Sequence record: ON075799 | DNA length: 64,000 bases | Direction: 5' to 3' (one strand) | Origin: Escherichia phage vB_EcoM_TH18 | In this document: piece after piece, positions 34,172-58,360 of the stretch | Numbering within the stretch: position 1 is the stretch's first letter | Layout: every line of letters begins with the position of its first letter | Position numbers and translations under genes: made by a program | Notes under the pieces: model-generated | Told to the model about the DNA's origin: nothing | Seen by the model: only the letters and a program-made list of their open reading frames with translations | The model's database searches: none

Positions 34172-35926
34172 TTATGGTTGTGGTCTGCGGACAATAACAG
34201 TGTCAACAACCCCATCTTCAACACCATTAAATGTCAATTGAAGGATGGTAACTGAATTTGCTGCTGTATTAACAGTTTCACTGTTAAGGACAACATAATT
34301 AGGATCCAGAGTTATACTGTGTCCACCTGTGGCATCCTGCGTCAGATAAATCATAGCGGAGAAAGGTTGTTGTGGGTCAGGCCATGCTCCGATTGTCAGA
34401 TTCTTATTCACTGTGACATTATAAATGTTGGATGTGCCACTTGGTGTCCATGTTGCCGTTGGGTCGCCAACTTCTTCCGATTGTAAAGTTAGGAAACCCA
34501 CATTGGTGGAAGAAAGTTGTGTCTGACCGTTAACAAATAACTGATTTGTCGTTACACTATTTTGGGAAGAGAGAGATGCTACGTTAACATTCTGACCTGT
34601 TAAATCAATCGTAATACCGGATACAGTTCCCTTGACAATCAAATTGTTTACTGTCGTTGTGCCAGAAGATCTATTTAAGACTACATCACCATCAGAGACA
34701 ATTTTACCAAGGTTAGAAGTTCCGTTAACCGTCAGATCACCGTCTACAGATCCGTCGCCAGTCGCAGTGAATCCCTCCCCCAAAGTTAATAGCCCTGTGA
34801 CATTACCAGTTGTAGAGGAGAAATCTTTGAGGCTGGCTTGCCCATTAACAACAAGGTTGTTAGTAACTTCTAAGCTCTCACATGTTGTACTGTTGAGATT
34901 GGTATTACCATTGACTTGTAAATCACCACCTACAGTAACCCCTTGTGCCGTTGTTACAGAATTAGGCGAGATATCTTCCCCATTGACAGAAAAAGAAAGT
35001 CCTGTTACAGTACCTGTAATCTTTAAGTTTTCAAGCTCTGTCATCCCAGAAACTTTAAGACGAGCTTCAGAGGGGTCTTTTTTAGAGTTGCCTGTAATAT
35101 AAACATAGTCGAAGGTATTATTACCAAGACCTGTGAAAGACATTGTTGTATTGTCTGCTACTGGCACACCGTTTATAATGATGTCTGTATGTAGCTGATG
35201 TGTCTGCGCTGAGTATGCTTCAAGCCTTGTTTTTATAAACGTCGGGTTAGAATCATCACTGTAGGCAAAAGATAAACTTGAATTATCTTTTGTTAAGATA
35301 AGATTCTGGAATTTTCCTGTTTGATTGTCAGCGTTAACAGGCCCATTAAATGTTGATACACCGCCAACAGAAAGCGTATTAAGACTCGCTAAACCTGTTA
35401 CAGTAAGATCCGCGAATGTACCATTTCCACCCGCAATCCCAGCTAAAGCAGTAGCAATAGCTCTAGTAACGAATTGTGTTGTTGCTAGTGTTGTGCTGTT
35501 ACTATCTGCTGATGGTGTTGGTGCTTGAGGGTTCCCTGTAAAGATAGGACTGTCAATAGGCGCAAATAGTTGCGACATAGATTCTGAATCGTTGTATAAT
35601 CTCCAGTTAACATTGTTGATCGGGTTAGAAGGCAACACCACCGGAGAGCTTTCAGTTGCACCGGGGGCATACCACCATTGGACACCTCTTTCCCCTGTAT
35701 AAGCATACAACTGATTAAATACTGTTGCCTGTTGCCCAGCAACCCACGGCAGTGGAGGTGTTTTAAAGAATAAATTGTCAAAAAATGCTTTTCTGACTGT
35801 AGGTATCAGACTACCATCCTCTGTAACTACAGTTTCAGTTGCTGTTCCATTGACAATTTTATGAAGGCGTTCAGAATCTTCTACAACCTGATCTACCGCC
35901 TGTTCAAATTTAGTCATGTCCGCCAC
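34172..35926 (-). CDS. tail fiber protein
   Basis: 'SPIFTGNPQAPTPSADSNSTTLATTQFV' conserved fiber N-region motif; Gly/Thr/Asn/Ser-rich repeats. Confidence 0.65.
   Translation of the reverse strand: MADMTKFEQAVDQVVEDSERLHKIVNGTATETVVTEDGSLIPTVRKAFFDNLFFKTPPLPWVAGQQATVFNQLYAYTGERGVQWWYAPGATESSPVVLPSNPINNVNWRLYNDSESMSQLFAPIDSPIFTGNPQAPTPSADSNSTTLATTQFVTRAIATALAGIAGGNGTFADLTVTGLASLNTLSVGGVSTFNGPVNADNQTGKFQNLILTKDNSSLSFAYSDDSNPTFIKTRLEAYSAQTHQLHTDIIINGVPVADNTTMSFTGLGNNTFDYVYITGNSKKDPSEARLKVSGMTELENLKITGTVTGLSFSVNGEDISPNSVTTAQGVTVGGDLQVNGNTNLNSTTCESLEVTNNLVVNGQASLKDFSSTTGNVTGLLTLGEGFTATGDGSVDGDLTVNGTSNLGKIVSDGDVVLNRSSGTTTVNNLIVKGTVSGITIDLTGQNVNVASLSSQNSVTTNQLFVNGQTQLSSTNVGFLTLQSEEVGDPTATWTPSGTSNIYNVTVNKNLTIGAWPDPQQPFSAMIYLTQDATGGHSITLDPNYVVLNSETVNTAANSVTILQLTFNGVEDGVVDTVIVRRPQP
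35514..35554. repeat. 41-bp exact DNA repeat (copy 1) shared with 58173..58213
   Basis: GGTGTTGGTGCTTGAGGGTTCCCTGTAAAGATAGGACTGTC, encodes 'DSPIFTGNPQAPTP' on minus strand. Confidence 0.8.
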
Positions 35927-35936
35927 AAGAATCTCC

Positions 35937-36200
35937 TTATTGGTCTGACTCTTCTCTACGTTGTGATTCTACACCCCAGCGTAGGGATATTAACTTACTT
36001 ATTAACTGTGGAGCAGCCACTGTGGGGGCATACACCCACATATACCACTCCGTTAATGTGCCTTTGAAACCCCAATCTAAAAAAACTGCTGTCATTGCAG
36101 CTAATCCGATATTACTCCAAAATTTAGTGTGGGAGGCCTTTTCTGGATTTACTGGGGATCTGACAAGATCTTTTAAAAATTTCAATATTGATTTTAGCAT
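35937..36200 (-). CDS. small membrane protein (holin-like topology)
   Basis: 87 aa, hydrophobic segments then charged C-terminus 'ESQRREESDQ'. Confidence 0.4.
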   Translation of the reverse strand: MLKSILKFLKDLVRSPVNPEKASHTKFWSNIGLAAMTAVFLDWGFKGTLTEWYMWVYAPTVAAPQLISKLISLRWGVESQRREESDQ

Positions 36201-36215
36201 AATACATTAGAATCC

Positions 36216-36689
36216 TCAATAATTTACTCCAGGAACAATTCTGGCTATAATTATGAAACCAACAACAACAGAAGTCTCAAGCAATTCTTTTATTGTACCG
36301 CTTTTGTATGCGGCGCATAATAAAAGAACTTCCATAAATGTTGGATATGATGAATTTATCGTGAAGCCTAATGCGTTTGGTAAAATAAATGGGAACTGCA
36401 TAACTAAAATTTGGCAAAACAGAACAGGAAGAGATAGTACAAGCATTAGCTTTTTTCTCCATCCTGTCAAAACACATGCAGTAAAGAAAATCAGAGATAT
36501 ATCAAGGAACCAACAGAAAGTTAGGTAGAGTGACAAGTCAAATGCGTAGATATGGTAACAGAACCACCAGTATAATATATTCTCTGACACGATATGAACC
36601 ATGCCAAATACTGACATGGCTCGGATCCCCTTATCATTATCAAGAAGTAGCACTGCAAAGCATATAAAGTACAGTGCAGAACTTATCAT
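36216..36689 (-). CDS. polytopic membrane protein
   Basis: 157 aa with about four hydrophobic helices. Confidence 0.5.
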   Translation of the reverse strand: MISSALYFICFAVLLLDNDKGIRAMSVFGMVHIVSENILYWWFCYHIYAFDLSLYLTFCWFLDISLIFFTACVLTGWRKKLMLVLSLPVLFCQILVMQFPFILPNALGFTINSSYPTFMEVLLLCAAYKSGTIKELLETSVVVGFIIIARIVPGVNY

Positions 36690-37000
36690 TTCATTTGGCT
36701 CTCTATAAGAATTTTAAGTTGATCTATAAGATCAACTCTCAAACTGCTCACATCCTCTTTTAAATCTTTTCTAAAATCTGAAACATCGTCGCGGACAGCT
36801 TTCAGCTTTTTATCAAGAATCTCATCAAGTTTCTCTTTAGTGACCATCTCTGCCTTAATTCTTATGATGTCCCTATCAAGTTCATCAAGACGTTGTTGTG
36901 TCTTTTTATAGTCTGAGTATGTTAACTTCAGAACACCAACTAAGAAAAACGTCAATACGCCCCATACGGCTTTTAAGATAGCAAATAGGTCAATAGACAT
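36686..37000 (-). CDS. membrane-anchored coiled-coil protein (i-spanin-like topology)
   Basis: N-terminal TM 'LFAILKAVWGVLTFFLVGVL' then charged coiled coil. Confidence 0.45.
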   Translation of the reverse strand: MSIDLFAILKAVWGVLTFFLVGVLKLTYSDYKKTQQRLDELDRDIIRIKAEMVTKEKLDEILDKKLKAVRDDVSDFRKDLKEDVSSLRVDLIDQLKILIESQMK

Positions 37001-37011
37001 TCTTTAGCTCC

Positions 37012-37596
37012 TTAATCAACAGATGGTCTTAGAGGCCACTCTATGTTTGGGGCATCCTCTGTTTTAATGCTTAGTATTTCACAACGATACATCTTCAGTT
37101 TCTTAAGCGTGTCCTCCATGTGTTTCGGTAGTTTTTTACCTGTTACCTGTTCATAGTCCCCATATGTTTGGATATATTGACTTGCCCAAGCAATTTCCTT
37201 ATCCTTGCGGAGTTTTGCTTCCTGTATAGATCGAAAATAGGTATAAGCAAATTCTCCATCTTTAAATGCCACGTCACCGAGGTCATACTCAATGCCTTTA
37301 GGCAAATTTTCTACCGAAACAACGGCTATTTTCCATCCGCTGAAAGGAGTACACCCATCAAAACCTTCATAGCAAACGCAGCAAACCCTATCGTCGAGGT
37401 CCAGCGAAAGAAAGGCATATTTTCCCGGATCTATTTGGGAGTTCAATTCTTCTGCTATTTCATAATAGTCTTTCCCCGTGGATTCTTCGTAGAAAAAAGG
37501 GGCGAAAGGGTTAACTTCCAACAATCTTTTCGTGGCTCCTGTTGCATTATCAGGGAGGGGAGAATAAGGGAAAAATGGTCCAAATATTTTGTTCAT
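37012..37596 (-). CDS. hypothetical protein (possible tail fiber assembly factor)
   Basis: directly downstream of fiber gene; no motif. Confidence 0.35.
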   Translation of the reverse strand: MNKIFGPFFPYSPLPDNATGATKRLLEVNPFAPFFYEESTGKDYYEIAEELNSQIDPGKYAFLSLDLDDRVCCVCYEGFDGCTPFSGWKIAVVSVENLPKGIEYDLGDVAFKDGEFAYTYFRSIQEAKLRKDKEIAWASQYIQTYGDYEQVTGKKLPKHMEDTLKKLKMYRCEILSIKTEDAPNIEWPLRPSVD

Positions 37597-37613
37597 GCAA
37601 CTCTCCTGAATGA

Positions 37614-38708
37614 TTACACTCTACTTACGTTGTGCCAGACACCATTAACTTGTTTCTGGATGTATGCATAGTAAACCCCACCAATGTTGTCTGCTGAGTT
37701 TTTACCAACATCTTGAGGATAGATACCTGTCATAACTGCACCCGCTGGCGCTTGCCAGTTCCAAGATATTTCGTTACCACCGGGCCAGTACCATGTGTTA
37801 CCTGTTAATCTAACATCTTGAACACCACCTGTTTGGATATTGACATTGCCGTTACCATCTGCACCAACACCATTAACAGATCTTACGATATTTCTCCCAG
37901 CAACTGTAGCAGAGTTATTATTTACAATTAGTGCATTTACGTTTGCTGTCCCATTAACTCTTGCAGATGGTGTTGTTAATGAGCTTGTTGCTACAACAGT
38001 CTGACCTTGAATTTGTCCTGTAGCCGTCAAAGAGGATGTTCTTGTTGTGGTGAATGTTGCATTTGTGCCATTAACATTTGTTCCTTGTACAGTGCCTGTG
38101 GCAACAACATTTCCTGTTACTTTACACAAAGCCGCTGAGGAGCTAATAGCATTAAGCTCCATCATAGTAAACATCCCAGAGTTACCTGAAGGAGAGAATC
38201 GGAAACGTATAGAATCTACACCGTTTGTCCCTGCTGTTCCTGGATTATCTCCAAGAACAAAATCCCAGTACGTCCAGTCAGAAGCTGGATTCGTAGTTGT
38301 GATATACGCAGTATCTGTTTCAGAAGGTTGAAAATTCAATCTCGGCAATGACAAAGCTCCTGTCATTGTATCTCCCGTTACATTCACGTAACGGTTGTCG
38401 GCTTCTGATCTACTCCACACATCAAGGTTGATTCTGGATGTTTCCTTGTCAGCTAAATCAGACAGATTTTCACTTCTTCTTAAAAATCTTGTATCTAATT
38501 CAGGTATCTGATCTCCTGTAACATATTTTATCCAACTTGTCATCATATAAAGAACATAGTTAAATTCTTCACAAGCTGGTTTTTCTCCCATATCCCAACC
38601 TTTTAACCAAAGATCGTCAATAGGTCTTATTTTATTCTCCCCATGAGTATTAGGGAGAATCACATCTCCCGCTGCCCAAATCTCGATTGGTATACTTGGT
38701 ATAGCCAT
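37614..38708 (-). CDS. tail fiber protein
   Basis: 'VTGDTMTGAL' fiber motif, Thr/Gly/Asn-rich C-terminal region. Confidence 0.6.
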   Translation of the reverse strand: MAIPSIPIEIWAAGDVILPNTHGENKIRPIDDLWLKGWDMGEKPACEEFNYVLYMMTSWIKYVTGDQIPELDTRFLRRSENLSDLADKETSRINLDVWSRSEADNRYVNVTGDTMTGALSLPRLNFQPSETDTAYITTTNPASDWTYWDFVLGDNPGTAGTNGVDSIRFRFSPSGNSGMFTMMELNAISSSAALCKVTGNVVATGTVQGTNVNGTNATFTTTRTSSLTATGQIQGQTVVATSSLTTPSARVNGTANVNALIVNNNSATVAGRNIVRSVNGVGADGNGNVNIQTGGVQDVRLTGNTWYWPGGNEISWNWQAPAGAVMTGIYPQDVGKNSADNIGGVYYAYIQKQVNGVWHNVSRV

Positions 38709-38723
38709 AAAAGTATCTCCTTC

Positions 38724-40787
38724 TTAAACTTCTGGTGGGGTATCTTTTAAATACCCTTTCAATGCTGTATGCCCCATATGAAAGACTGCGGATTGAGAGT
38801 TGTGCACTGTTATAGAATCATGCATTACTTGTGGATACGCCCATATGTATTGATAAATATCTGGAAACTTAAACTCATTAAGAACAATGTTCCCTATAAT
38901 CATTTTCCAAAGATATTCTCTATAATTAGAATTAGGGTCAAATCCGTATAATGGTGCTAGCCCTTCGTCTGGAACAAATCCTGCCAGATAATGTATCTTA
39001 TCTTCTTTAAATTTTAAGACATCTCGCGGAATGGTGATGGCCTGGAATGATTTTTCCATTTTTCCTTGAAGTAACCAGTCATAGCACTCGGAGCAATAGA
39101 AATCAAAATTCTCAGGTGTATAACTACCACTAGGGAAATTTATCTTTTCCATAATACCATTACCAATAATGGATGGTAAGAACGGTAAAAGTGTTATTTT
39201 TGCATTAGGATAAGATTTTTTAAGATCAGCACCGAATTTTACCACTCGCTCTCCTAGACACTGTCTTAGAAAATCTACATACTCATCATAGGGCGTTCCG
39301 GTCTTAAAGTCATAAATTGTTCCCATGTCTTGAGCATACAATCCAGTCTCTTCATTAAAACGCGCTTTTGTAGTATAATCATACACACAAGGTAAATTTG
39401 TAGCAGTATTATACCACCACCAAGGTTCCCCTATCTGAATGATAACAACCTGGTTAACTTGTTCGCATGTGGCTGCTATTTTATTTATTACACTTTGGAT
39501 ATATTGCATACCCTCGTTAATATTAGGTGATAATACCCAACTTGGTGGTGTGTATCCTGTTTCAGCTAATGCATCATTCCAGTCGTGCTGAACCCACTCT
39601 GGAGGACAAACTGTACTCATCAACTCAAAACTAATAGAATTGATAACCTTATAACCATTTGCTCGTGTCAGTGCGAAATAGTTATTCATCCATTGTAGGG
39701 TTGCATTATTGACAGGGACATCTTTGTTCAGTTTCCATGCGGAGCTTTCCCAAGAGAACTCGTAATAATGCGACATACCATTATAGTGATTTATCATATC
39801 TCTATAACCGAGTTTTAAGCAGTTATCCACCACTCTCTCCGGTGTAAGATTATACATATCATCATAAGATGTACACATGCGTATATCATGAGCAGGAATT
39901 GTCAAATTATTAACTCTCATCATTGTATAGCCTGTATCAGGCTCTTTAAGAGTTATTTTCAACATAAGATTCTGATTTTCTTTAGGGACAATATCTTCTC
40001 CTTCTGCATACTTCTCAGATATCATAGAAAAGAAAAACTGATCCACTTGAGAGGTATCCACTGCCACGTCCACATCAGGACCAGATTTTAAATTTGAAAA
40101 ATCAAGTTTGATTGTGGCCCTTTTATAATCCTCGCTGATATCTTCAGCATAAGCGTACAGAGGGATATAATGGGTTGCCCCATCTAAAAGTTTAAGAGTT
40201 AATGTTGGGGTCAATTTCTCATTATTGAAATCAGGCATTCCGTCGCCCAACTCTATATCGAACCACAGTTTAGCGTTTCGAAGGTCTGTGTGATCTTGAA
40301 AAGAGATCCCTTTATGATCATACTTATCTTTTGTGCTCCAAATAACCCCTGCCAGACCACTGACAGTTCTATTAGTCATATAAGCTGTAAGTATATTACC
40401 ATTAGATATTATAGAGCAACTTTCTGTGGGTTGAGAATCAATTGTCCAATATTTAGGTAGAAACATTTTCTCTTCTTTTGTTCCCCATCCCAACTCAGAC
40501 ATGTCCTCCTTGGTGCTAATAACACATCTGGAAGCCAGCCTGTCTAGCCTTGCACCAAAAGACGGGTTACTCATTTTTAAAGTAAATTCCCTTGGTAATG
40601 AGTTTTTAGGATGTTGTTTTATCTCCACAGGTATTTGTACAGACTTTTCCCCTTTAGGAATTGTTGCCGTACCTACCTTGGGTGTGTAATCTCTTCCAGC
40701 AATAGCTGTGTTTGATATTGTTTCATAGTCAAAGCTAACAGCTACAGAGTCATCTTCTCTTCTGGCTGTGAAAATAGCCTCTGCCAT
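38724..40787 (-). CDS. tailspike/tail-associated protein with N-terminal Calx-beta-like domain
   Basis: 'DYETISNTAIAGRDYT...GEKSVQIPVEI' Calx-beta-like; 687 aa in fiber cluster. Confidence 0.5.
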   Translation of the reverse strand: MAEAIFTARREDDSVAVSFDYETISNTAIAGRDYTPKVGTATIPKGEKSVQIPVEIKQHPKNSLPREFTLKMSNPSFGARLDRLASRCVISTKEDMSELGWGTKEEKMFLPKYWTIDSQPTESCSIISNGNILTAYMTNRTVSGLAGVIWSTKDKYDHKGISFQDHTDLRNAKLWFDIELGDGMPDFNNEKLTPTLTLKLLDGATHYIPLYAYAEDISEDYKRATIKLDFSNLKSGPDVDVAVDTSQVDQFFFSMISEKYAEGEDIVPKENQNLMLKITLKEPDTGYTMMRVNNLTIPAHDIRMCTSYDDMYNLTPERVVDNCLKLGYRDMINHYNGMSHYYEFSWESSAWKLNKDVPVNNATLQWMNNYFALTRANGYKVINSISFELMSTVCPPEWVQHDWNDALAETGYTPPSWVLSPNINEGMQYIQSVINKIAATCEQVNQVVIIQIGEPWWWYNTATNLPCVYDYTTKARFNEETGLYAQDMGTIYDFKTGTPYDEYVDFLRQCLGERVVKFGADLKKSYPNAKITLLPFLPSIIGNGIMEKINFPSGSYTPENFDFYCSECYDWLLQGKMEKSFQAITIPRDVLKFKEDKIHYLAGFVPDEGLAPLYGFDPNSNYREYLWKMIIGNIVLNEFKFPDIYQYIWAYPQVMHDSITVHNSQSAVFHMGHTALKGYLKDTPPEV

Positions 40788-40799
40788 ATGTGGTCTCCT

Positions 40800-41477
40800 C
40801 TACTCTGTTGCATCTACAGAAATATTGTCAACATAAATAAGGATGTCATCCGATGTTCTTGGTGGATCCGGTACGTAAACTAGATGGGCTAAACCACCAT
40901 CACCAGTTCTTGATTTCTCTGTCACAGATCCGAATCCAAGTGCATGTTTGTCATTCTTAAAACCAAACGCTAAACCCACAGACTCTGTTAGTCTAAGATG
41001 CGTTGGTAACGGTAATAGGTCAAGTATCTCATCTATCGCTGCTGCTAAGTCGAAACAGCTTTTTGATACGTTTACGTCAAAGCGATAATTATCCCCTTTG
41101 TATGTTGTAAAATTTCCAGTACCAAACAGTTGATTTAATGTCTCAATAAATTCTGGTCTTGTACCGTGTCTTGCAGATCCAGCAGCCAAGATCATTATTA
41201 TTGCCCGATAAGTGGCATCATCAAGTCCATTTCTCTCAATACCAACTTGATTGCCTATCTCATCAAGATTCAGCCCTGCGGCATTCCTTAATAATCTTCC
41301 TTCTGATAGCTTTACAAGCATCTCATCAATAGCTTTCAATCTTTCAAGGTATATTGTCAGAAATTTTACAAGATTCTTTTTCTCTTTCAGAAAATCACCA
41401 GGGAGATAATCAATACCTCCCTCAACGAAATCTGGCAGTGTGTGTATATGATTTACATCTTTCAAATAGTCTGCCAT
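40800..41477 (-). CDS. baseplate protein (gpI/gp48-like position)
   Basis: gene order after J-like protein. Confidence 0.4.
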   Translation of the reverse strand: MADYLKDVNHIHTLPDFVEGGIDYLPGDFLKEKKNLVKFLTIYLERLKAIDEMLVKLSEGRLLRNAAGLNLDEIGNQVGIERNGLDDATYRAIIMILAAGSARHGTRPEFIETLNQLFGTGNFTTYKGDNYRFDVNVSKSCFDLAAAIDEILDLLPLPTHLRLTESVGLAFGFKNDKHALGFGSVTEKSRTGDGGLAHLVYVPDPPRTSDDILIYVDNISVDATE

Positions 41478-41487
41478 AATAATATCC

Positions 41488-42981
41488 TTAAAGAACTTGC
41501 TGGAAAGTTATGTCATTTAACTCCACAGCGAAAACTTCTGTCATAGTAGCAACAATATCGTTATTAGTATACGTACTGTCTGGCTCACCTTTGTTTTTGA
41601 CATCTACAAAAAGTTGAGTAAATCTACCTGATGAGATGGAAGACCCTACAGCAGAAACAAGTTGGATATTGTATAATGTATCTGCAATACTAAGTGGATC
41701 AACAACAGCTTTAAGGGAATCCCTGATCGTGTTCTGTTCTGTAAGGGATAGTAATTTACCTTTATACCTGACACGAATTTCAAGTTGCCTTACTTTTGCC
41801 TTGCTATGATAAATTCTTTCTACTTGGTCATCCTCTGTAGTCACATCATAGAATACATCCCCATAAGTGGCATTAGAGAGTGCTATAGTATTATAAAGCG
41901 CCTTACTAATATCTTCTGTAGCTCCACCATAAACTACTGTCTCAAACTTATACGCTGGGACACCGTACTCGTTTGTCACACCAGTATTGTTGGAGAAAAT
42001 TTTAACCTTACTTACACCCGGCACATTTAAAACAGCAGAAACAATCGCAGGTCGTGTTGCGGCAGCGCCTGCTGATGTAGTGTTTGAAGCCCTCAACTTA
42101 TATTCGGTATCCGTCTCAACATCTGTACCATCACTAAATGCTTCCCTGTTCGTCAAGCTAACAAAACCACTTGGTGTTGGGCTTATGTTGGTAACTGTCT
42201 CTGCTTCTCTAGATATCTCCCCAGCTTCAACAGCGATAACATCCATGGTTATTGTTCTTTGACCAAGTAGAGGTGATGTTCTAAAGTCCACAGGGGCATT
42301 AAGACCAATCATTTTCTTATTTTGATCATAACCTATAAACATACTTCCTGAAGAAGATTCGATGAAGATCTTATCTTCGTTCAGATAAGTTGTATTATCG
42401 ACTATAAACTCTTTCATAGCCATCATAAAAGAGTTTAATTCGGTGCTGTTTGGGGTTTTGTTTTTCAGAGATAGGTTCAGTGTCTTTGTTGTCCCATCAT
42501 TCTGGTTAACTATCTGAATGATGTAGTTACCAAGAACCCAATCTTGATTAGTTATCTGCTGCGCTATGATATTACCAGCAACGGCGGTATCTTCTGTTAA
42601 CACAAAATTTCCACCGTCAATACTGTATGTTGCGGCATCATAAATCATATTATACGGCACTGTGTTATTAATTACCATTTGAACAGTACCGGACCCTTTG
42701 GTTTTTCCTCTACGGAATATCCCACGACGACCAAGAATCTCGTCAAGATATATACCTTCTGCCCCTGCTAGTGTTTGTGCTGCATAAATAGATGCAGCCA
42801 AAAGAATTAATTGATATTCCCTTTCGTTGAAAATAGTAGTGATCTTATCAACAACGGAGTTAGTTTGGGTGTTAAAGTTTTCACCAAAAGCTCTAATAAG
42901 GGATTGCTTAGTATCTGTTATCAAGTCATCAAGGGACGGAATTGAAAAACCGTAGTCATTTAATCCAAATTGAGCAGCCAC
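41488..42981 (-). CDS. baseplate J-like protein
   Basis: 497 aa; GTG start with RBS GAGGAGG; position and size typical of gpJ/gp6-like wedge. Confidence 0.5.
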   Translation of the reverse strand: MAAQFGLNDYGFSIPSLDDLITDTKQSLIRAFGENFNTQTNSVVDKITTIFNEREYQLILLAASIYAAQTLAGAEGIYLDEILGRRGIFRRGKTKGSGTVQMVINNTVPYNMIYDAATYSIDGGNFVLTEDTAVAGNIIAQQITNQDWVLGNYIIQIVNQNDGTTKTLNLSLKNKTPNSTELNSFMMAMKEFIVDNTTYLNEDKIFIESSSGSMFIGYDQNKKMIGLNAPVDFRTSPLLGQRTITMDVIAVEAGEISREAETVTNISPTPSGFVSLTNREAFSDGTDVETDTEYKLRASNTTSAGAAATRPAIVSAVLNVPGVSKVKIFSNNTGVTNEYGVPAYKFETVVYGGATEDISKALYNTIALSNATYGDVFYDVTTEDDQVERIYHSKAKVRQLEIRVRYKGKLLSLTEQNTIRDSLKAVVDPLSIADTLYNIQLVSAVGSSISSGRFTQLFVDVKNKGEPDSTYTNNDIVATMTEVFAVELNDITFQQVL

Positions 42982-43083: not shown

Positions 43084-43086
43084 CCA

Positions 43087-49889: not shown

Positions 49890-50363
49890 TTAAACGATAC
49901 CGGAAAGTCCAGCGAGGCCAAAGCCAACAGAGGACAGAGTATCAGGACTCAACCAAGCATCCAGAATACCAATTTCCCAGTCCATCTGACCAACTTCCGT
50001 TCCATAAGTCAGATCAGGCTGTTTCTGAATCCATCCAATTGTACTCAAACCCATACCTTGAGAACCTTCCAGAAGAACAGGGAAGAAAATAAGGCCAGTT
50101 ACGGATGCTTGTTTTTGCCAGTTTGCTAAATTACCATTCCATGATGCTGTATTCTGAAGAGAAACCGTCATAACACCAGATTGGTTACGGGACAGTGCAG
50201 CAGATAGCTCACCATCAACCCCCATGTGGGGGTTGATATTGTCTTCGTTACGTGACACAACAATTTTCGTGTCCGCTGCGAATCCTGTTACTCTTTGAGT
50301 CATCAGGTACAGTTTTACTTTTTTAGGGTCATATGCATACGGCGTTAGAATAGCTGTATTCAT
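49890..50363 (-). CDS. tail tube protein
   Basis: 157 aa immediately downstream of sheath-size gene. Confidence 0.5.
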   Translation of the reverse strand: MNTAILTPYAYDPKKVKLYLMTQRVTGFAADTKIVVSRNEDNINPHMGVDGELSAALSRNQSGVMTVSLQNTASWNGNLANWQKQASVTGLIFFPVLLEGSQGMGLSTIGWIQKQPDLTYGTEVGQMDWEIGILDAWLSPDTLSSVGFGLAGLSGIV

Positions 50364-50366
50364 TTA

Positions 50367-51779
50367 TTACACTCCTGCTGTTACTGTCTGTGCGTTACCA
50401 GAATTTGAACCTGTTTTGTCCAGCATGACAGTCATACGGATCTTGACAAAATGTAGCGGTGTGTTGTATACCAGTTCCACTTTCACGTTGTTAAGTGTAC
50501 GTGCTGCCAGATCGTTAGTAGGTATGCTTCCACGCAGAGGGATTGTGATTACAGGGTCGAAGAAGACCTTGTTAACCTCATCATAACCTGTTAAAATAGC
50601 CCCGTTAGAAATACCTACGTTGATAGGGTTATTCATGATGACAGACTTCAGATTAGGAAGGTCATCATCGCTCATTTTAACAGACAGCCCCATGTTGGAT
50701 CTGCGAGACATATATCCGAAAACACTTTCTTCGGTGCGGAACTTAAGCCAGTGACCAAATCTCACAACATCTACATAATTACCAGAAGCGCACTTACCTT
50801 CATAGAAGGAGCCTACACCATTAATCATGCGGTAGAAGTTAAGATTCTTACCCCAGATTGTCATGCGGTCAGTGGCACTCAAGGTAGGTGCAATAACTCC
50901 GTCCATAGTCTTCAGGTGAATAGAATCCCCGTAAGAAGGATCGTTAGATGCCATTGCCCCGATAATTCCTCCTTCTGGGTAGGCGCTGTCTGCCAGCGGA
51001 TCGTACATACCAATAGATGTGTCGTATTGCAGAGCTTTCAGTTCATCTGCAATAGAGTCACTATCGGCAGTTTTAGATTTTTCATCAGCAGTTGAGTAAA
51101 CATGCATCTTGTAATTTGCAGCGGCGAATGCGGCGGCACTTAAGATAGATGTTTTTGTATGTGACTCAGTACTGACAAAATACCAGTTCTCATTTGCGGT
51201 CATAACCTGCGGAAGAACAGAAGAAACTGTCTCATCGGAGGTATTGGTGATGACCATATTTCCGCTATCTTTACCAACACTAAACTTGCCACTGTCTTTT
51301 GGGGCAATTGTTACTTTAGCTTCGCTTGCTGTTGCCGTAAGTACAGTCTTCAGCGTTGTATCCGCATTAATAGCGTCAGCCAGAGATGTGGCGATTGCAG
51401 AAGGCTCTGAAGATACATTTACATTGACAAGTATGCTCTTTTGATAAGCCCCTGTCACAAAGTTTAGAGCTACAGGTGTTTCTGGGTCTGTATTTGTCTG
51501 GTCTGTAAAATCCACAACCGTATTGGTGAAGCCTTGGCGACCAATCATCAAATATTGTGGACGGAATGTTCCAGAAAATGCCTTAGATGCATAATTATAT
51601 GCAGGTGTTCCAACAGCAAATCCATCATCAACTAATTGACTAAGTTCGGTATAAGCACGAACTCTTTCTGGGAAGACATTATGGATCGCAAGGAACAGTG
51701 GGGTTTCAAACCCTTTTGTGTCGATTGGTTGAGTACCAAGTGTGACTGTTACATCAACCACCTTGTCATTATAAGCCAT
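50367..51779 (-). CDS. tail sheath protein
   Basis: 470 aa preceding tube gene; structured 5' leader upstream. Confidence 0.5.
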   Translation of the reverse strand: MAYNDKVVDVTVTLGTQPIDTKGFETPLFLAIHNVFPERVRAYTELSQLVDDGFAVGTPAYNYASKAFSGTFRPQYLMIGRQGFTNTVVDFTDQTNTDPETPVALNFVTGAYQKSILVNVNVSSEPSAIATSLADAINADTTLKTVLTATASEAKVTIAPKDSGKFSVGKDSGNMVITNTSDETVSSVLPQVMTANENWYFVSTESHTKTSILSAAAFAAANYKMHVYSTADEKSKTADSDSIADELKALQYDTSIGMYDPLADSAYPEGGIIGAMASNDPSYGDSIHLKTMDGVIAPTLSATDRMTIWGKNLNFYRMINGVGSFYEGKCASGNYVDVVRFGHWLKFRTEESVFGYMSRRSNMGLSVKMSDDDLPNLKSVIMNNPINVGISNGAILTGYDEVNKVFFDPVITIPLRGSIPTNDLAARTLNNVKVELVYNTPLHFVKIRMTVMLDKTGSNSGNAQTVTAGV

Positions 51780-51905
51780 CGATTTCCTCTTTTATTTCTG
51801 TACGTACAGTTATTGACCAGCACTTATTTGTGCTGTGTTATGGGTTATTTCCCCACATCGTGATCACCAATAAGCCAGTGCTTATCAATAACCAAAATAT
51901 TTCTT

Positions 51906-52436
51906 TTAATCCTCTCTCGGAAAATGATATGAAAGTTGCGCATTGAGGGTTTCCAAATCTTCGAAAACTCCAGTGTCTGTTTCTGCAAAGCAAACATTAA
52001 AAGTTATCAGCACTACAGCCCGAGTTTCATATTTTTGGACATTCAAAGGAACTCTCAACCGAGATATTGTTGAAGAGGAGGAATATGCAAAAGGTGAATT
52101 AGTTGGGAAATACTTATCGTATATAAAAGGTAAGTTCATAGCCTGTAGAATACGACTTAGGGCATTTGGTGCTTTACCACGATAAGCAGTCAATGTATAT
52201 ACAACTTCATAGTTATGGACTGTCATCGCTCGACCATCATCAGTAAATCCATCGTCTGATTGCCAGTCAAGCTGATCTACAGCAGTGAGGTCCACTAGAA
52301 TAAACTCACCATCAACTTTAGGTATTTCATCTTCCCCTGCCAGCACGACTTTCCTACCAGTAACTTCTTTACAAAAAGAACCTATTGTTTTCGTCAAGGC
52401 ATCGAAGATTTCATCTGTACTGATAAAATCAGTCAT
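51906..52436 (-). CDS. neck/tail completion protein (hypothetical)
   Basis: position between head and tail modules. Confidence 0.35.
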   Translation of the reverse strand: MTDFISTDEIFDALTKTIGSFCKEVTGRKVVLAGEDEIPKVDGEFILVDLTAVDQLDWQSDDGFTDDGRAMTVHNYEVVYTLTAYRGKAPNALSRILQAMNLPFIYDKYFPTNSPFAYSSSSTISRLRVPLNVQKYETRAVVLITFNVCFAETDTGVFEDLETLNAQLSYHFPRED

Positions 52437-52870
52437 TAAATACCTCCGTTTGTTCCTTCTGGTATTGCCACCACATAGGCTCTGAACCTAGAGACACCTG
52501 TGGTCTGATACAAATCAGATTTAATAACTGTGAACCACTCCATCTCACCACGAGAGTTCATTAATAGGATCTGATCAGCCATGTTATCAGATCCTTCTAC
52601 TGGGCCTTTTAACATCACAGATGAATACACTGTAAAGGAATCATACTGTCTGCCACCTTCAGGAACTAATTGGGACGTGTAATCCCTAGCTGCTTTACCA
52701 CTAATAGGTTGAACAACACATTCAGGTACATCAAATTCAACATACTCAATATCCAACCCACCATTTTCAAATGGGTTATCTAAGTCTGTCTTTTTGAACT
52801 GTCTGTGTCTACCTTTCATGGTGACTCTGGGTATCAATTTGTTCTTTCCTATAAGTTTGTATCCCGCCAT
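52436..52870 (-). CDS. neck/tail completion protein (hypothetical)
   Basis: position. Confidence 0.35.
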   Translation of the reverse strand: MAGYKLIGKNKLIPRVTMKGRHRQFKKTDLDNPFENGGLDIEYVEFDVPECVVQPISGKAARDYTSQLVPEGGRQYDSFTVYSSVMLKGPVEGSDNMADQILLMNSRGEMEWFTVIKSDLYQTTGVSRFRAYVVAIPEGTNGGI

Positions 52871-52873
52871 AAT

Positions 52874-53350
52874 TTACGCCCCTGAACCTCTTCTGTTCGA
52901 AATTTTATAAGTCGTGGAATCTCTTAAATCCCCATAGTGATACATAGCTGCACTAAAACCTTTGACATCTGCCCATGCATCTGATACAGTATTATGAGGG
53001 AAAAGCCCAGAGTCTATTACAAACTTAATTTTTTCAGCACCTGCTTTACCAATTTTTTTCAGCATTGGGGTTGGATTATTACTTCCAGATACTAACGTGC
53101 CGAATAACTCCTTCTGTAATTTCTCCAAATCCTTTTGAAAGGACACAGCCGCGCTAGTTATGAATGTACGGGCTGGAAGATTATTCCAGCCTTGTTCATG
53201 GATAGCTGCCAGAGTTGCAGTATTCAGTCCTGAATAGTGTGGGTCATCATAATAACCATAAGAGACTTGTTTTTTATCAAGTTGCTGTACAGAATTATAA
53301 AAATTCTCCACAGCACTTAAATCTTGATGAGATTTAAATTTTGTTCTCAT
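52874..53350 (-). CDS. neck/head-tail joining protein (hypothetical)
   Basis: position. Confidence 0.35.
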   Translation of the reverse strand: MRTKFKSHQDLSAVENFYNSVQQLDKKQVSYGYYDDPHYSGLNTATLAAIHEQGWNNLPARTFITSAAVSFQKDLEKLQKELFGTLVSGSNNPTPMLKKIGKAGAEKIKFVIDSGLFPHNTVSDAWADVKGFSAAMYHYGDLRDSTTYKISNRRGSGA

Positions 53351-53415
53351 GAGAACTCCCGTTAAGGTATTTTACCACATTATTCAAGCAAAATCAATAA
53401 TTAGGAATACGATTG

Positions 53416-53934
53416 TCAATAATACCTGTGTTTTGGGTATCTCCGAGGAATACCGGGGACTCCTGTTTGAGGAACTATACCAGAAACATCAAACGGGCTT
53501 CTGGAGTTTGGATTGTTCTTGACACGCCAAAACTCATCCTGCCGCACACCACCCACAATAATCAAACCAGAGACACCATTCAGACAACTATTGACGTAAT
53601 CAGGGTTTTGCAGTAGCCAGTCCAGAAAATCTTTCCAGTTCTGGTATGACGAGCCACCTTTCACCTGTATTGTCTCATCACCTATCTTTTCCAATCTTTC
53701 TGTGATGGATGCCTCACCAGAATTTATCTCTTGAAGAATTAACCATCTTAACACAGCTACCATTGTGTTATAGACCACTTTCCACATATCGCAGGGCGTA
53801 GATGATGGATTAGGCCAGTTTGCTCTTTTTTTCTCCATCTCAAGGAATGCCATAATAACTTCATCAGGTAATGTCTCTGGGGATATTGACCCGAGCAGGA
53901 GCCTGATGTAATCAACAATTTCTTGGTCTGTCAT
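53416..53934 (-). CDS. head-tail connector-like protein (hypothetical)
   Basis: position. Confidence 0.35.
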   Translation of the reverse strand: MTDQEIVDYIRLLLGSISPETLPDEVIMAFLEMEKKRANWPNPSSTPCDMWKVVYNTMVAVLRWLILQEINSGEASITERLEKIGDETIQVKGGSSYQNWKDFLDWLLQNPDYVNSCLNGVSGLIIVGGVRQDEFWRVKNNPNSRSPFDVSGIVPQTGVPGIPRRYPKHRYY

Positions 53935-54006
53935 CTAACTCTCCATTCTATGTTACTTGTTAGTAACTATATTATCACAAAATACAATTTTTGTCATTAA
54001 AAACGC

Positions 54007-54034
54007 TTGACACGAAAAATTCCACAGGTAAGAT
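54007..54034 (+). promoter_or_regulatory. sigma70-like promoter for plus-strand moron
   Basis: TTGACA-N16-TAAGAT upstream of RBS GGAGG and ATG 54062. Confidence 0.5.
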
Positions 54035-54061
54035 AAGTACAACAATTGCTATGGAGGATTT

Positions 54062-54466
54062 ATGAAAAATATTTTAAAAATTACAATTGGCCTGTGCGTC
54101 TGTGCTGTTATTGCAGCGGGAACTCTCCAATATGTGAAAAAGAACCCAGACATTAATGATTATAAATCTGTCGAGGCAAGTTGGTTGTCGCCAGAAGAAA
54201 AAGATGAGGCAATCAGCCGTATTGTGCAATTATCTTGCGATAAAAGATTCAGAGAAGCATTTAAGCCAGACGTTATTGTTGTGTCATCAGGCTTTGAAGG
54301 CAGGATCGCAGAGCAAGCGGAAGCATATCAATATTTTGATGATGTCGCAATTATCTCAGGAAAACAATCTTACACTGGAAAATACATCTGTACTTTTTAC
54401 AAAGATGGGCGTGAACCGTATATTAATGCAAACTTGAATAAGGGAGTACAAGAACTCCTAAAATAA
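54062..54466 (+). CDS. small secreted or membrane-anchored protein encoded by an opposite-strand moron in the late region
   Basis: 134 aa, N-terminal signal-like 'MKNILKITIGLCVCAVIAAG'; own promoter and terminator. Confidence 0.55.
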   Translation: MKNILKITIGLCVCAVIAAGTLQYVKKNPDINDYKSVEASWLSPEEKDEAISRIVQLSCDKRFREAFKPDVIVVSSGFEGRIAEQAEAYQYFDDVAIISGKQSYTGKYICTFYKDGREPYINANLNKGVQELLK

Positions 54467-54467
54467 A

Positions 54468-54488
54468 AGACCCCGAAGGGTCTTTTTA
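54468..54488. terminator. bidirectional intrinsic terminator
   Basis: AGACCC-CGAA-GGGTCT followed by TTTTT; A-rich on the other side. Confidence 0.6.
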
Positions 54489-54746
54489 TTACGACATAAT
54501 ACCAGCGGCTTTCAACTTGGCAAGCAAAGCATTAAAATCACTTACCAACGTAGAGACATCTGAAGCCATAGAATCTGCTTGTGTTTGTGCTTTCTTAACA
54601 CCTCCTAATGCCGATTCCGTAGCCGCTGGAAGAACATAGCTATCTGAGCCTCCAGCAACAATATCTTCGATTTTCACAGATTTTCCAGTTTTTATATCAA
54701 TAAGGCTTGATGCATATACTTTACCAGCCACACCTGTAGTTGCCAT
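54489..54746 (-). CDS. small fiber-related protein (N-terminal module paralog)
   Basis: 'MATTGVAGKVYASSLIDIKTGK' parallels N-terminus of 57110..58360. Confidence 0.45.
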   Translation of the reverse strand: MATTGVAGKVYASSLIDIKTGKSVKIEDIVAGGSDSYVLPAATESALGGVKKAQTQADSMASDVSTLVSDFNALLAKLKAAGIMS

Positions 54747-54756
54747 AATTATCCCC

Positions 54757-56547
54757 TTAGTTGTTTAGATAAGAATATTGCAAGAAATATTTAAATTCGT
54801 GGACTTGTTCGTCCGCTCCTGCAATAGGAATGATTCCATTAAGTCCTGATAAACCGTCTCCACGAAGAAGTTTAGTTATTACCTTCGTCTTAGGATCAAT
54901 GGTATGCGTAGGGACTGTTGGTAAAATAAGCCATACAGCCACTGTAGGTTGCCCTGATCCGACAACACTTGGATATTCTGCATAGATATCATAATCAAGA
55001 TACGTACCGTCTTCCGTACAAGGTATCTCTGTCAAACGAACATCCACCATAACATCTGTGCTGCCAGCAGGTGATCTGTTCAAATAAACTGTTGTTTTCA
55101 AATATATAGAAGACCCTGATCTTCCTGCTGCGTTTTTCGCTGAAGGTATGTCACTATAATTGAAAGAGAAATTCCCAGATGTTGCTGACAACCTCATAGT
55201 CGGCTGAGGAGAAAATGGGATATTAAAGCTCGCTTGTTGACTTGAATCATCTGTCATTGTAAAAGTTAGTGTAACCTGTTGTGCACTATCTATTTCTTTA
55301 ACAACAGCATTAACAGATTTTATTGTTTGTCCATCAGCACCTTTAGGAATACCTAAGTTAAGAACTTGTGAAGGGGAATCACCAGTTATTGATGCGGTCG
55401 CCTGTTGCCCACTTTGCAAAGAGGAAACTGTGCCGATAGATAGTGAATAGGTGGCAGAACTTCCTCCAAGGTCTACCCAAGAAACAGGGGTACTAGGGTC
55501 TGAGCCTCTAATTGTATACTTAACACTACCATCCGCGCCATAAAACAAGATCAACTTACTTGCCGTTGCTGAAGTTTTATCGTTTTGCCAATTATCTAGC
55601 CATATTATTTCAAATACGCCAGAGTTTGCTGGGGATTGTATATGGGCATAATACCTCCCCGGCATGGTCTGATTGGCAAGAGAAGCGATCTCATCAATGT
55701 TTAGCAACGATAAGGTGACACCATCACTCGCTGCCATACCGTACCCAAAACTTCCCGGTATGGCAGCAACACCAGCCGTGCGATCATGAATATTCGCTTG
55801 TTTGGCAGTTAACAAATCATACCACACTGCTGGGTCACTTAGATTGTTACCACGGATCGTATATTTCATATGACCGTCTTTACCAAAAAAGAGAACCAGC
55901 TTTGTTGCTGTCTGGCTTGTTTTGTCACCCCAGCCATTATCCAGCCAGATAATTTCTGTTATTCCTGTCATTTCCTCCGATTTTGTGGTGAAAGTATAAT
56001 ACCTTCCCGGATGTAAGTTATGGGCAGAACGCGCAACATCACCAAGACTGTTAGCAATAAGTGAAGTTCCTCCAGGATTTGTCATTCCGTAGCCGAAAGC
56101 GCCAGGCAAAGCTGCAACACCAGGTGCAGAATCATAAAGCCATTCTTGCACTTTGGTAGGAGCAACATACAACCCCTCTTCTCCTTCAGAGGTTATATTT
56201 GTTAAAGCGTTTCCTTCTTTAGGAGAAATCGGAATATTTATTTCAGGTGCTGTTACATATAATGCTCCTTGCTTCAACTCCAGCAGGTTATTTGCAGCAG
56301 GACTCACCTTAACAGCTAACCCATTATCTCCAGCTTGGAGAGCATTATTTTCATCTTCTGCCACCACAACAACACCTTTAAGAGGTGTAGCTTCTCCCCC
56401 ATCACCTAATAATTTAAGCGTGAGGGTATCTTCCGTATGCAACTTAAATTTATCTCCGAGTGTACCGCCAGAAGTATCTATACTATAACCGTTAGGTAAG
56501 ATAACTTCAGCATTTACAACTTTATCTTTATAATCCATAACTACCAC
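54757..56547 (-). CDS. fiber / receptor-binding-like protein with internal tandem domain duplication
   Basis: two ~110-aa repeats '...PG(A/S)FGYGM...PGRYY...EIIWLDN...KYTIRG...'. Confidence 0.5.
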   Translation of the reverse strand: MVVMDYKDKVVNAEVILPNGYSIDTSGGTLGDKFKLHTEDTLTLKLLGDGGEATPLKGVVVVAEDENNALQAGDNGLAVKVSPAANNLLELKQGALYVTAPEINIPISPKEGNALTNITSEGEEGLYVAPTKVQEWLYDSAPGVAALPGAFGYGMTNPGGTSLIANSLGDVARSAHNLHPGRYYTFTTKSEEMTGITEIIWLDNGWGDKTSQTATKLVLFFGKDGHMKYTIRGNNLSDPAVWYDLLTAKQANIHDRTAGVAAIPGSFGYGMAASDGVTLSLLNIDEIASLANQTMPGRYYAHIQSPANSGVFEIIWLDNWQNDKTSATASKLILFYGADGSVKYTIRGSDPSTPVSWVDLGGSSATYSLSIGTVSSLQSGQQATASITGDSPSQVLNLGIPKGADGQTIKSVNAVVKEIDSAQQVTLTFTMTDDSSQQASFNIPFSPQPTMRLSATSGNFSFNYSDIPSAKNAAGRSGSSIYLKTTVYLNRSPAGSTDVMVDVRLTEIPCTEDGTYLDYDIYAEYPSVVGSGQPTVAVWLILPTVPTHTIDPKTKVITKLLRGDGLSGLNGIIPIAGADEQVHEFKYFLQYSYLNN

Positions 56548-57113
56548 CCAACTTTTATCCTTTGTAATTCCTCAACTGTAGAGGCTGAAAGCACTTGGTC
56601 TTTCATTTCTCGTTGCTTAGTGTATATTGAATCATTCTTAGTTGCCAACTCGGAAGACATAGCTACAACAAAATTTTCAAATTCAGAACTACTCATCTCA
56701 ACAGGTTTGTTATCAGCATCTCTCCAAATCACAGCTTGTTTAGCCGGAGATGCTTTTTGTGCTAATAATACTGGATAAATACGACATAAGGTTGCATTAT
56801 CAACATCATACCTTGCACCATTATAAGAAACAATAGTCGTAGAGCTTTCTTCCAGTTTTCTCCACTCTTTTATTTCTGATAACATCTGTTGCTTTAATGC
56901 CTCGATAAATTGAGGGTTTGCTGTATACGGGGCAATCTCTCCAAAACTACCAGATTGTAAGGAATCCCAAACTGCTTTCCCAGTTTCACTATAGTCGTTG
57001 CTAGAAGCGGTGTATGGGAGATAATCAGAAAAACCATTAAAAAGTACCAGACAATCAACGTCACCATTAAGAAGATATTGTGGAGACTTAATATCTTTAA
57101 TATCCAGCATCAT
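56541..57113 (-). CDS. hypothetical protein (fiber-associated)
   Basis: 190 aa between two fiber genes. Confidence 0.4.
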   Translation of the reverse strand: MMLDIKDIKSPQYLLNGDVDCLVLFNGFSDYLPYTASSNDYSETGKAVWDSLQSGSFGEIAPYTANPQFIEALKQQMLSEIKEWRKLEESSTTIVSYNGARYDVDNATLCRIYPVLLAQKASPAKQAVIWRDADNKPVEMSSSEFENFVVAMSSELATKNDSIYTKQREMKDQVLSASTVEELQRIKVGW

Positions 57114-58360
57114 GCGATCCTCATAAAAAGACCAATATAACCTGTATCAGTACCATTTTTATTGCTTGGTGAACCGGATAAGGCTATAAACGTACCTCGC
57201 TGTGTTTCAGTACTGTGTGTAACAGAAACTGGCGTACTTTGAAATGCACCTGTTGTGGAAACCTTACTATAAAGAGTTATACAGCCTATGCGGGAACCTG
57301 GGATGGTCTGACCACGAACAAGTTTTCTGTTTGAATCAGTGTTCGAAGCGCCAAGATACACTCCCAACATCACCCCTCCAACATCAGGACTTCCCCATGT
57401 GTTTCCTACGGTTGATTGTAAATAGGAGAATTGTCCTTTTATATTTACCCAATCACCATCAGCAAAACTGGTTAGTAAGCGATAATAATACAATTCACCA
57501 TTTATGCCATAAAAATAGGCATGTTTACTATTTTTTGCTGCTTGCTCTGCATTCTCTGCTGGATATGGTGACAATACCTCAACCATACCTTTAAAAGTAA
57601 TCCCTTCAATAATACGTGTGTCACCTGAAGATAAATCTTGGTGAACAAGGTAACGACCAGGTTGTGCACTTCTCAACCAAGAAACCCATTCCTCTGGCCC
57701 ATTCTTCTCTTGAAAAACAACTTCTTTCTCGGCAGGGATAAACGCCCCAAAACCAAATGCCCCTGGTAAAGATACTACCCCATCTGTGGCATCATAGATA
57801 TCGTTTTGTACACCTTTTGTGGCAGCGGTTTTTATACCCAAGTAATCAAGAACCCCAGTTTTTGAATCTTGCCCTATGATAACTCGACCAACAGCAGAGA
57901 GATTTGCCAAAGCCATTACGTTTTTATCACTGAAATAAGCTAATTTATTTCCAGCAGTAATCAATCCTGACAAAGATGTCAGTATTTCACTCAACGGTTG
58001 TTTACCAGCAAGAGCGTTAGTGATTGTTGTTGCAAAGTTCGGGTCATCGCCTAATGCCTTCGCTAATTCATTGAGAGTATCTAATGTTTCAGGCGCTGAG
58101 TCAGCCAATTTTGCAATTAAACCCTTCACATATTCTACATTAGCTATTTCCTTTCCAATAGCATCATCCAACGGTGTTGGTGCTTGAGGGTTCCCTGTAA
58201 AGATAGGACTGTCTAAAGGAGCTTTGGATGCAATAAGATCCGTTATATCTTCTGGAATATTCCCACCACCCAACTCATCAAAATTTATTTTCTTTCCTGT
58301 TTTCTGGTCAACCAATGCACGACCATAAATTAAACCACCAACACCTGTTGTTGCTGTCAT
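57110..58360 (-). CDS. fiber protein
   Basis: 'DSPIFTGNPQAPTP' motif and a copy of the PGAFG...PGRY domain. Confidence 0.55.
   Translation of the reverse strand: MTATTGVGGLIYGRALVDQKTGKKINFDELGGGNIPEDITDLIASKAPLDSPIFTGNPQAPTPLDDAIGKEIANVEYVKGLIAKLADSAPETLDTLNELAKALGDDPNFATTITNALAGKQPLSEILTSLSGLITAGNKLAYFSDKNVMALANLSAVGRVIIGQDSKTGVLDYLGIKTAATKGVQNDIYDATDGVVSLPGAFGFGAFIPAEKEVVFQEKNGPEEWVSWLRSAQPGRYLVHQDLSSGDTRIIEGITFKGMVEVLSPYPAENAEQAAKNSKHAYFYGINGELYYYRLLTSFADGDWVNIKGQFSYLQSTVGNTWGSPDVGGVMLGVYLGASNTDSNRKLVRGQTIPGSRIGCITLYSKVSTTGAFQSTPVSVTHSTETQRGTFIALSGSPSNKNGTDTGYIGLFMRIA
58173..58213. repeat. 41-bp exact DNA repeat (copy 2) shared with 35514..35554
   Basis: identical 41-mer inside second fiber gene. 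Confidence 0.8.

Follow-up and report, generated by a model that had tools for sequence, protein, structure and literature searches.

A 41-bp repeat shared by two tail-fibre genes of an Avunavirus phage as a probable footprint of short-tract gene conversion

In this work, an exact 41-mer (GGTGTTGGTGCTTGAGGGTTCCCTGTAAAGATAGGACTGTC) was analysed that is shared by two otherwise dissimilar tail-fibre genes in a 64-kb stretch of DNA from Escherichia phage vB_EcoM_TH18 (ON075799; 64,000 nt, hereafter the window). The two genes, here called gene A (34172..35926, minus strand) and gene B (57110..58360, minus strand), carry one copy each, and our findings indicate that their identity is most probably the footprint of recurrent, ectopic, non-reciprocal, short-tract gene conversion, in which codons of gene A were copied into gene B within the same phage genome. 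The window coincides with the record of Escherichia phage 18-1-2 (OK136180; genus Avunavirus, subfamily Vequintavirinae), window and record having equal coordinates, and over this region the phages 19-1-2 and 24-2-1 are identical to 18-1-2 and Av-05 is about 94% identical to it. As an earlier note on this DNA had reported, the 41-mer occurs at 35514-35554 and 58173-58213 and encodes the same peptide in both fibre genes. It is the longest repeat of the window, with a spacing of 22,659 bp between the copies, and no further copy with up to three mismatches was found in the window, while 100 dinucleotide-preserving shuffles yielded 0. Both copies lie on the same strand, inside minus-strand open reading frames (ORFs), and are therefore direct repeats.

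Read on the coding strand, the repeat is GAC AGT CCT ATC TTT ACA GGG AAC CCT CAA GCA CCA ACA CC, that is, 13 codons and two bases of the next proline codon, with the product DSPIFTGNPQAPT(P) at residues 125-138 of A (35514..35554, minus strand, the donor copy) and at residues 50-63 of B (58173..58213, minus strand, the acceptor copy). All 13 of the 13 complete codons are the same in both genes, and the probability that 13 codons agree when the amino acids are identical is 4.8e-6, calculated with the codon frequencies of 31 structural ORFs of the window. The identity of A and B over 41 nt is thus explained neither by chance nor by codon bias. The earlier note had described the flanking sequence as diverging immediately, which proved too strict, as 47 of 50 nt match when the flanks are included, and the two proteins can be aligned by BLASTP over 37 residues only (57% identity, E 4e-10; about 110 nt), a segment that covers the motif and the following helix in A (aa 122-158; 35453..35563, minus strand) and aa 47-83 in B (58112..58222, minus strand). 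An assembly artefact was ruled out, since the same 41-nt identity between A and B is found in an independent metagenome assembly, the ENA contig k141_59651, in which A (locus L020) and B (locus L011) lie on one contig.

The comparison with relatives covered the B genes of nine further independent contigs (seven further alleles) and the A genes of sixteen. The native motifs of the two families differ, being SP(I/V)FTGNPQAPT in the A family and SPxFTGTPTxPT in the B family. All A alleles (18 of 18) encode DSPIFTGNPQAPTP, and their nucleotide variants within the motif are synonymous (AGT/AGC and ATC/ATT, with ACG for ACA in one allele). Nearly all of the closest A-family homologues carry GNPQ(A/C)PT, and more distant A homologues of Klebsiella phages carry GSPTAPT. 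Among the 120 best homologues of B, in turn, those from outside Avunavirus have motifs of the SPxFTGTPT(T/A)PT type and never NPQ. Since NPQ is an A-family signature that is missing from the non-Avunavirus homologues of B, the NPQAPT of the Avunavirus B proteins is also of A type. In a set of 22 B-type proteins, IESPSF was found in 12, IESPIF in three and LDSPIF in four (the window protein, P0002, P0259 and P0260), all of these with G(N/K)PQAPTP, and the native TPT type is kept in P0005 (VESPSFTGTPTTPTP) and P0010 (IESPSLTGTPTAPTA).

At the nucleotide level, gene B of the window differs from the common B sequence at seven clustered positions (nt 144, 145, 150, 153 and 157-159). At six of the seven, the derived base is that of A; these include the triple change from TCA to ATC, and the peptide changes from IESPS to LDSPI. 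When the window is set against Av-05, P0003, P0004, P0006 and P0038, all changes at nt 150, 153 and 157-159 are to the base of A. In Av-05, gene B reads CCA ATA GAA AGC CCT TCA TTT ACA GGA AAC CCC CAA GCA CCA ACA CCG, which encodes PIESPSFTGNPQAPTP, and gene A carries the 41-mer with one synonymous difference. Outside the tract no A-like sequence is present in gene B of the window, which diverges from Av-05 B by 2.8% over nt 189-330 and is about 88% identical to it over nt 69-147. As both flanks are orthologous to those of other B alleles, the A-like segment is a patch and not the product of a crossover. Since all but one of the derived B bases match A, and the A alleles are uniform in the peptide that they encode, this allele comparison shows that the transfer ran from A into B. 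The most recently converted patch appears to be GAC AGT CCT ATC (B nt 148-159; 58202..58213, minus strand), which turns the ancestral E-S-P-S into D-S-P-I, and it adjoins an older A-like tract, TTT ACA GGG AAC CCT CAA GCA CCA ACA CC (B nt 160-188; 58173..58201, minus strand), encoding FTGNPQAPT(P). As in other gene-conversion tracts, identity drops sharply on both sides, the tract is missing from orthologues of the acceptor, the donor is unchanged and the exchange is non-reciprocal.

The B alleles form a graded series in the length of their longest exact run with A, which is 5 nt in P0010, 7 nt in P0005, 14 nt in Av-05, 20 nt in P0038, 26 nt in P0003, 29 nt in P0257, 32 nt in P0004, P0006 and P0267, and 41 nt in the window and P0002. 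In P0004, P0006, P0257 and P0267 the older 29-nt tract is the same as in A (runs of 29-32 nt); it has decayed in Av-05, P0003 and P0038, and P0005 and P0010 lack it. In the last two alleles the motif is written in quite different codons, which is how the two genes appear when no copying has taken place. The intermediate alleles P0257 and P0267 encode IESPI with ATT as the isoleucine codon, which is ATC in the window and P0002, and the A genes present the haplotypes AGT-ATC, AGC-ATT, AGT-ATT and AGC-ATC. The contigs with intermediate B alleles are ENA ERZ28565981 scaffold_96 (137,934 bp), Logan ERR3593526_199 and ENA ERZ27254724 k141_325769. In both genomes for which the pair is known (the window, and contig k141_59651 with L011 and L020), A and B are AGT-ATC alike. 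The most parsimonious account of these alleles would be two or more separate conversion events, probably three, with differing tract lengths.

Some points weigh against this interpretation. The recurrence of conversion is deduced by parsimony, and the A/B pairs are known in AGT-ATC genomes only; for the ATT alleles, a look-up by the invariant 104-aa protein encoded next to A led to ten other contigs. The older event of 29-32 nt is deduced from motif type and nucleotide identity, and it could date from the origin of gene B; likewise, the states of P0005 and P0010 could be later replacements from Stf-like genes and not ancestral. Moreover, the codon just upstream of the tract in gene B of the window is TTA (Leu), whereas A has ATT and ancestral B has ATA at this place, so that an additional point mutation, or mismatch repair in patches, has to be assumed for the upstream boundary. 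Finally, when ten large ORFs of the replication module in the window were scanned against PHROG, helicase, primase, polymerase, RIIA/RIIB, HNH endonuclease and other functions were recovered, and no recombinase was recognised among these ten ORFs. Host or other phage functions may therefore be responsible; the DprA-like protein annotated in Av-05 lies outside this window.

We hypothesize that the widespread fibre motif SPxFTGxPxxPT, which follows the N-terminal attachment domain in both proteins, served as a short seed of nucleotide homology. In a first step, the codons for FTGNPQAPTP of A would have been copied into B, leaving 29-32 identical bases. Such a length is about the minimum for efficient homologous pairing in E. 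coli. After this first copying, a heteroduplex between the two loci would form more easily, either within a concatemer or between co-replicating genomes, and mismatch correction or synthesis-dependent repair (synthesis-dependent strand annealing) could extend the tract upstream. In the lineage of 18-1-2 and the metagenomic phage with P0002, a second step would have lengthened the tract by 12 nt upstream (GAC AGT CCT ATC), changing IESPS to LDSPI and giving the 41-bp repeat. In a third step, conversion probably recurred, as other B alleles with IESPI (ATT) match a different A haplotype. Regarding the molecular route, we infer either heteroduplex formation with mismatch repair or synthesis-dependent strand annealing. 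The changes from E to D and from S to I in B may have been neutral or selected. It seems to us unlikely that the copying from A to B was adaptive, a 'domestication' of a horizontally acquired Stf-like fibre, although repeated one-way conversion could have made its junction segment equal to that of the resident long tail fibre because both need the same partner (a shared chaperone or docking surface) or the same beta-helix register in folding. If this were the case, phages could in general fit foreign fibres to their virion through short-tract conversion from a resident, conserved gene.

Gene A encodes a 584-aa orthologue of the long tail fibre (LTF) of phage PhiTE, as it matches the 'putative tail fiber protein' of PDB 9cuy_g / 9mjn (E 5e-87) with residues 8-570 of A aligned, motif included. 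The homology is full-length and includes the N-terminal baseplate-binding region, as is characteristic of PhiTE-type long tail fibres, and conservation of the gene extends through Vequintavirinae to related myophages. The precomputed Pfam domains Phage_phiTE_241_N and _C are found in its close relatives, while Pfam scans of the two proteins themselves gave only a sub-threshold Bactofilin match for A and nothing informative for B. By alignment, the motif of A corresponds to residues 134-147 of PDB 9cuy chain g, a chain which, to judge from PMC11972413, is likely to be the LTF. The PhiTE long tail fibre has been modelled over residues 14-171, which comprise an N-terminal helical bundle, a globular domain, a short beta-helix and a short helical bundle (PMC11972413). 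The motif would thus form the short beta-helix after the baseplate-binding domain and before the helical bundle. In other phages, matches to the N-terminal domain of A stop at residue 111-128.

Gene B encodes a 416-aa fibre like lambda Stf, P1 S and P2 H, with an Avunavirus-specific N-terminus of about 38 residues, and it is annotated as 'tail fiber protein' in OK136180. Its full-length tblastn matches come from Avunavirus records only, and over residues 34-183 the identity to P1 S, D6, HK629 Stf and Wphi H is about 50%, with the homology starting at residue 34-46. PF03406 (Phage_fiber_2) matched neither A nor B, even with the E-value limit relaxed to 10. P0019, a lambdoid homologue, has its PF03406 unit at residues 189-228, and the motif follows directly at 231-242; as the unit ends just before the motif, the motif adjoins this family and is not a part of it. 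Taken together, these alignments place the motif, in both proteins, at the point where a phage-specific attachment part passes into the shaft.

This location at the boundary of anchor and shaft, where in A the matches stop at residue 111-128, in B the homology starts at residue 34-46 and in lambdoid Stf proteins a PF03406 unit has just ended, is in accordance with the proposal of the earlier note, namely that the 41-mer is a hotspot at which A and B swap N- and C-terminal modules, giving chimeras and rearrangements. The junctions of B alleles in or near the motif point the same way. Nevertheless, no combination of A and B exists among 254 homologues, the few double matches being weak similarity around the motif and the shaft, and B-like sequence stands on both flanks of the patch. 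The identity of A and B is therefore not a sign of module exchange but of a one-way patch. Inversions, which the earlier note also had in mind, cannot arise between direct repeats; a crossover would instead delete the intervening 22.6 kb, with the essential sheath, tube, tape-measure and baseplate genes. The standard gene order is kept in three GenBank records and in the metagenome contigs. As an account of exchange between A and B, module swapping is thus largely refuted, and we regard it as quite improbable.

The idea of a hotspot held up better in another respect, since mapping of breakpoints in relatives placed junctions between B alleles in the motif or within about 15 nt of it, although no junction between A and B was among them. 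Up to nt 155, P0010 has just three differences from Av-05 B, and its sequence becomes one of Stf type at nt 156, inside the motif. Between P0002 and the window there is 0% difference across the motif but 25.6% over nt 69-147, the divergent patch of P0002 lying at nt 75-135 with the last difference at nt 135. L012 and L015 show 0% difference over nt 1-188, and when they are read by codons the identity extends to about nt 200; over nt 189-330 they are 21.8% different. The PLDD and PSDD types of B allele separate at nt 188/189. In exchange among B-type genes of different phages, the motif thus acts as a junction in the way that the earlier note had in mind for a hotspot, much like the conserved motifs of T-even fibre genes.

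A second alternative is that the LDSPIFTGNPQAPTP patch in B was derived during co-infection from a third gene, a fibre gene of a prophage or of another phage, and not from the resident A. The B alleles are indeed mosaic, with segments exchanged with other phages and Stf-like genes, and P0002 and the window carry the same patch despite the difference of 25.6% just upstream. However, A-type sequence was found only in the A genes of Avunavirus and in converted B genes, across phage, E. coli, GTDB, IMG/VR and JGI data. A megablast search (28-nt word) with a 60-nt segment of B containing the 41-mer returned Avunavirus A and B genes only among 50,697 phage records and no match in 5,426 complete E. 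coli genomes. In IMG/VR, the 41-mer gave no match when scanned for exactly, and exact scans for the 29-nt core found only A of Av-05 in IMG/VR, one further Avunavirus A gene in the JGI metagenomes and none in the GTDB genomes. A foreign donor of this kind is therefore very improbable, although the donor could be the A gene of a co-infecting Avunavirus, in which case the same mechanism would have acted between genomes. The weakest alternative, that no recombination took place and that purifying selection on a structural motif together with codon bias, or nucleotide-level selection for a signal in RNA or DNA, preserved the identity, can appeal to the very wide conservation of the motif in protein, but it is already contradicted and extremely improbable, given the codon identity calculated above for the same amino acids, the synonymous variants tolerated in close relatives (AGT/AGC, ATC/ATT, GGG/GGA, CCT/CCC and ACA/ACG), the entirely different motif codons of P0005 and P0010, and the replacement of the ancestral B residues E and S by D and I of A, which selection for conservation cannot explain.

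The proposed gene conversion between A and B has features in common with several known systems. In T-even phages, recombination between conserved motifs of the distal tail-fibre and adhesin genes was reportedly described by Tetart, Desplats and Krisch in 1998, a study cited in PMC3157838. There, as here, short conserved structural motifs in divergent fibre genes offer patches of homology, and mosaic junctions are located at the motifs; the T-even gp38 is known for its glycine-rich motifs (PMC3157838). In the T-even case, however, alleles of one locus in different phages swap specificity segments, whereas here two non-allelic genes of one genome are involved, the transfer is one-way, 12-41 nt were moved and no receptor-binding module was transferred. 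From residue 34-46 onwards, B belongs to the family of P2 H, P1 S, Mu S and lambda Stf, its phage-specific N-terminus being joined just before SPxFTG. For the fibres of this family, horizontal transfer of long segments is said to have been described by Haggard-Ljungquist et al. in 1992 and Sandmeier et al. in 1992. Those transfers concern long segments and unrelated phages, whereas in the present case a motif is homogenised with a second, unrelated fibre gene.

Another parallel is with bacterial tufA and tufB, in which ectopic gene conversion leads to concerted evolution of dispersed paralogues. As in that system, the exchange between A and B is non-reciprocal, the copies are dispersed and in the same orientation, the tract is bounded by homology, identity decays by mutation between events, and orthologues of the acceptor reveal the direction. 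Unlike tufA and tufB, A and B lack full-length paralogy, with only some 110 nt that can be aligned, and the tracts are extremely short, at the lower limit of homologous pairing. The repeat is also reminiscent of the Cin/Gin/Min systems of P1, Mu and p15B, as the same gene family is concerned and short repeats in fibre genes mediate rearrangement; P1 S matches B, and a cixR site is annotated under that match. In those systems, inverted crossover sites of about 26 bp are used by a serine invertase to provide alternative C-termini, whereas the present repeats are direct, 22.7 kb apart across essential genes, and without an alternative C-terminal cassette. A full-text search of the literature for the motif strings (SPAFTG, TGNPQAP and others) returned nothing relevant, and no description of this repeat was found in it. 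The A/B repeat is thus a new example of a well-known phenomenon, ectopic gene conversion with concerted evolution, and involves no new mechanism.

Other candidate elements were considered and rejected. An inversion site of the Cin/Gin type was discarded because the repeats are direct and enclose sheath, tube, tape-measure and baseplate genes; in addition, no serine invertase is annotated over the region in the Av-05 and 18-1-2 records, a statement that refers to the annotations read and not to a scan of every ORF. Template and variable repeats (TR/VR) of a diversity-generating retroelement were rejected since the repeat has 41 nt (vs about 100 bp or more), is perfectly identical and is placed near the N-terminus, and no reverse transcriptase is annotated in the same two records. 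An E. coli Chi site was not accepted either, the nearest resemblance being GCACCAAC vs CCACCAGC, with 6 of 8 positions matching by eye.

Gene conversion as proposed here would show, in a natural case, that a conserved motif of no more than 30-40 nt allows unrelated fibre genes in a single lytic phage to undergo homologous copying, and that the tract can grow stepwise. The motif may also be a natural splice point for the engineering of chimeric fibres in Vequintavirinae, and repeats of this kind are potential points of deletion and misassembly. Furthermore, identical short segments in receptor-binding proteins should not be taken as evidence of module swapping without a check of the direction against relatives.

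Some observations concern gene B and its alleles apart from the repeat. In P0010, the unit that consists of the motif and the following helix is duplicated in tandem, each copy beginning with SPxLTGxPTAPTAAQG. Along the gene, the mosaic segments nt 1-68, nt 69-147, nt 189-330 and beyond nt 372 show different relationships among the same genomes; beyond nt 372, divergence among the B alleles is 5% in some comparisons against 58% in others (loci L011-L015, L021 and L024-L028, and the window). Residues 64-148 of B (DSAPETLDTLNELAKALGDDPNFATT) match the 'Tail collar fibers, gp4' of PDB 9d93 (E 3e-12) and also minor tail proteins from hundreds of phages that infect Mycobacterium, Gordonia and Microbacterium. 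The gene is placed between capsid and neck genes and not among the baseplate genes, which bears on its attachment site on the virion. In the window and in all metagenome contigs, gene B follows the major capsid and Phage_Inh_N genes, whereas in Av-05 (L001 3184-5014, compared with 58360-60044 of the window) the gene before it is DprA-like and lies on the opposite strand. The Av-05 record is therefore either rearranged or assembled differently just upstream of B.

Two further repeats were noted in the window. A second direct repeat, of 23 nt and 87% identity, is found at 33124-33146 and 55904-55926, 22,780 bp apart, inside the two large genes that adjoin A and B, and codes for DKTSQ(S/T)AT in both; it may be due to chance or may be another patch common to fibre-associated genes. 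An inverted repeat of 21 nt (35504-35524 and 37861-37881; 90% complementary) has one arm that overlaps gene A's copy of the 41-mer at its downstream end, and its other arm lies inside the next fibre gene (37614-38708), on whose coding strand the motif is not encoded. This inverted repeat is probably a product of chance.

Elsewhere in the genome, the large terminase gene of 18-1-2 is split by an HNH homing-endonuclease gene (63775-64000 of the window and beyond; 63775-65902 in OK136180). The insert varies among relatives, being HNH_3, Endonuclease_7 or none in the regions upstream in L011, L012 and L021, and in Av-05 the fragments of the DNA polymerase gene are interleaved with HNH genes. Two genes downstream of B, a variable protein of 596 aa is encoded (54757-56547, minus strand), with a length of 529 to 654 aa among relatives. 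Its residues 125-229 and 250-344 are each about 30% identical to residues 175-292 of B (E 1e-6 to 1e-8), which suggests a duplicated domain that this protein would have in common with the C-terminal half of B.

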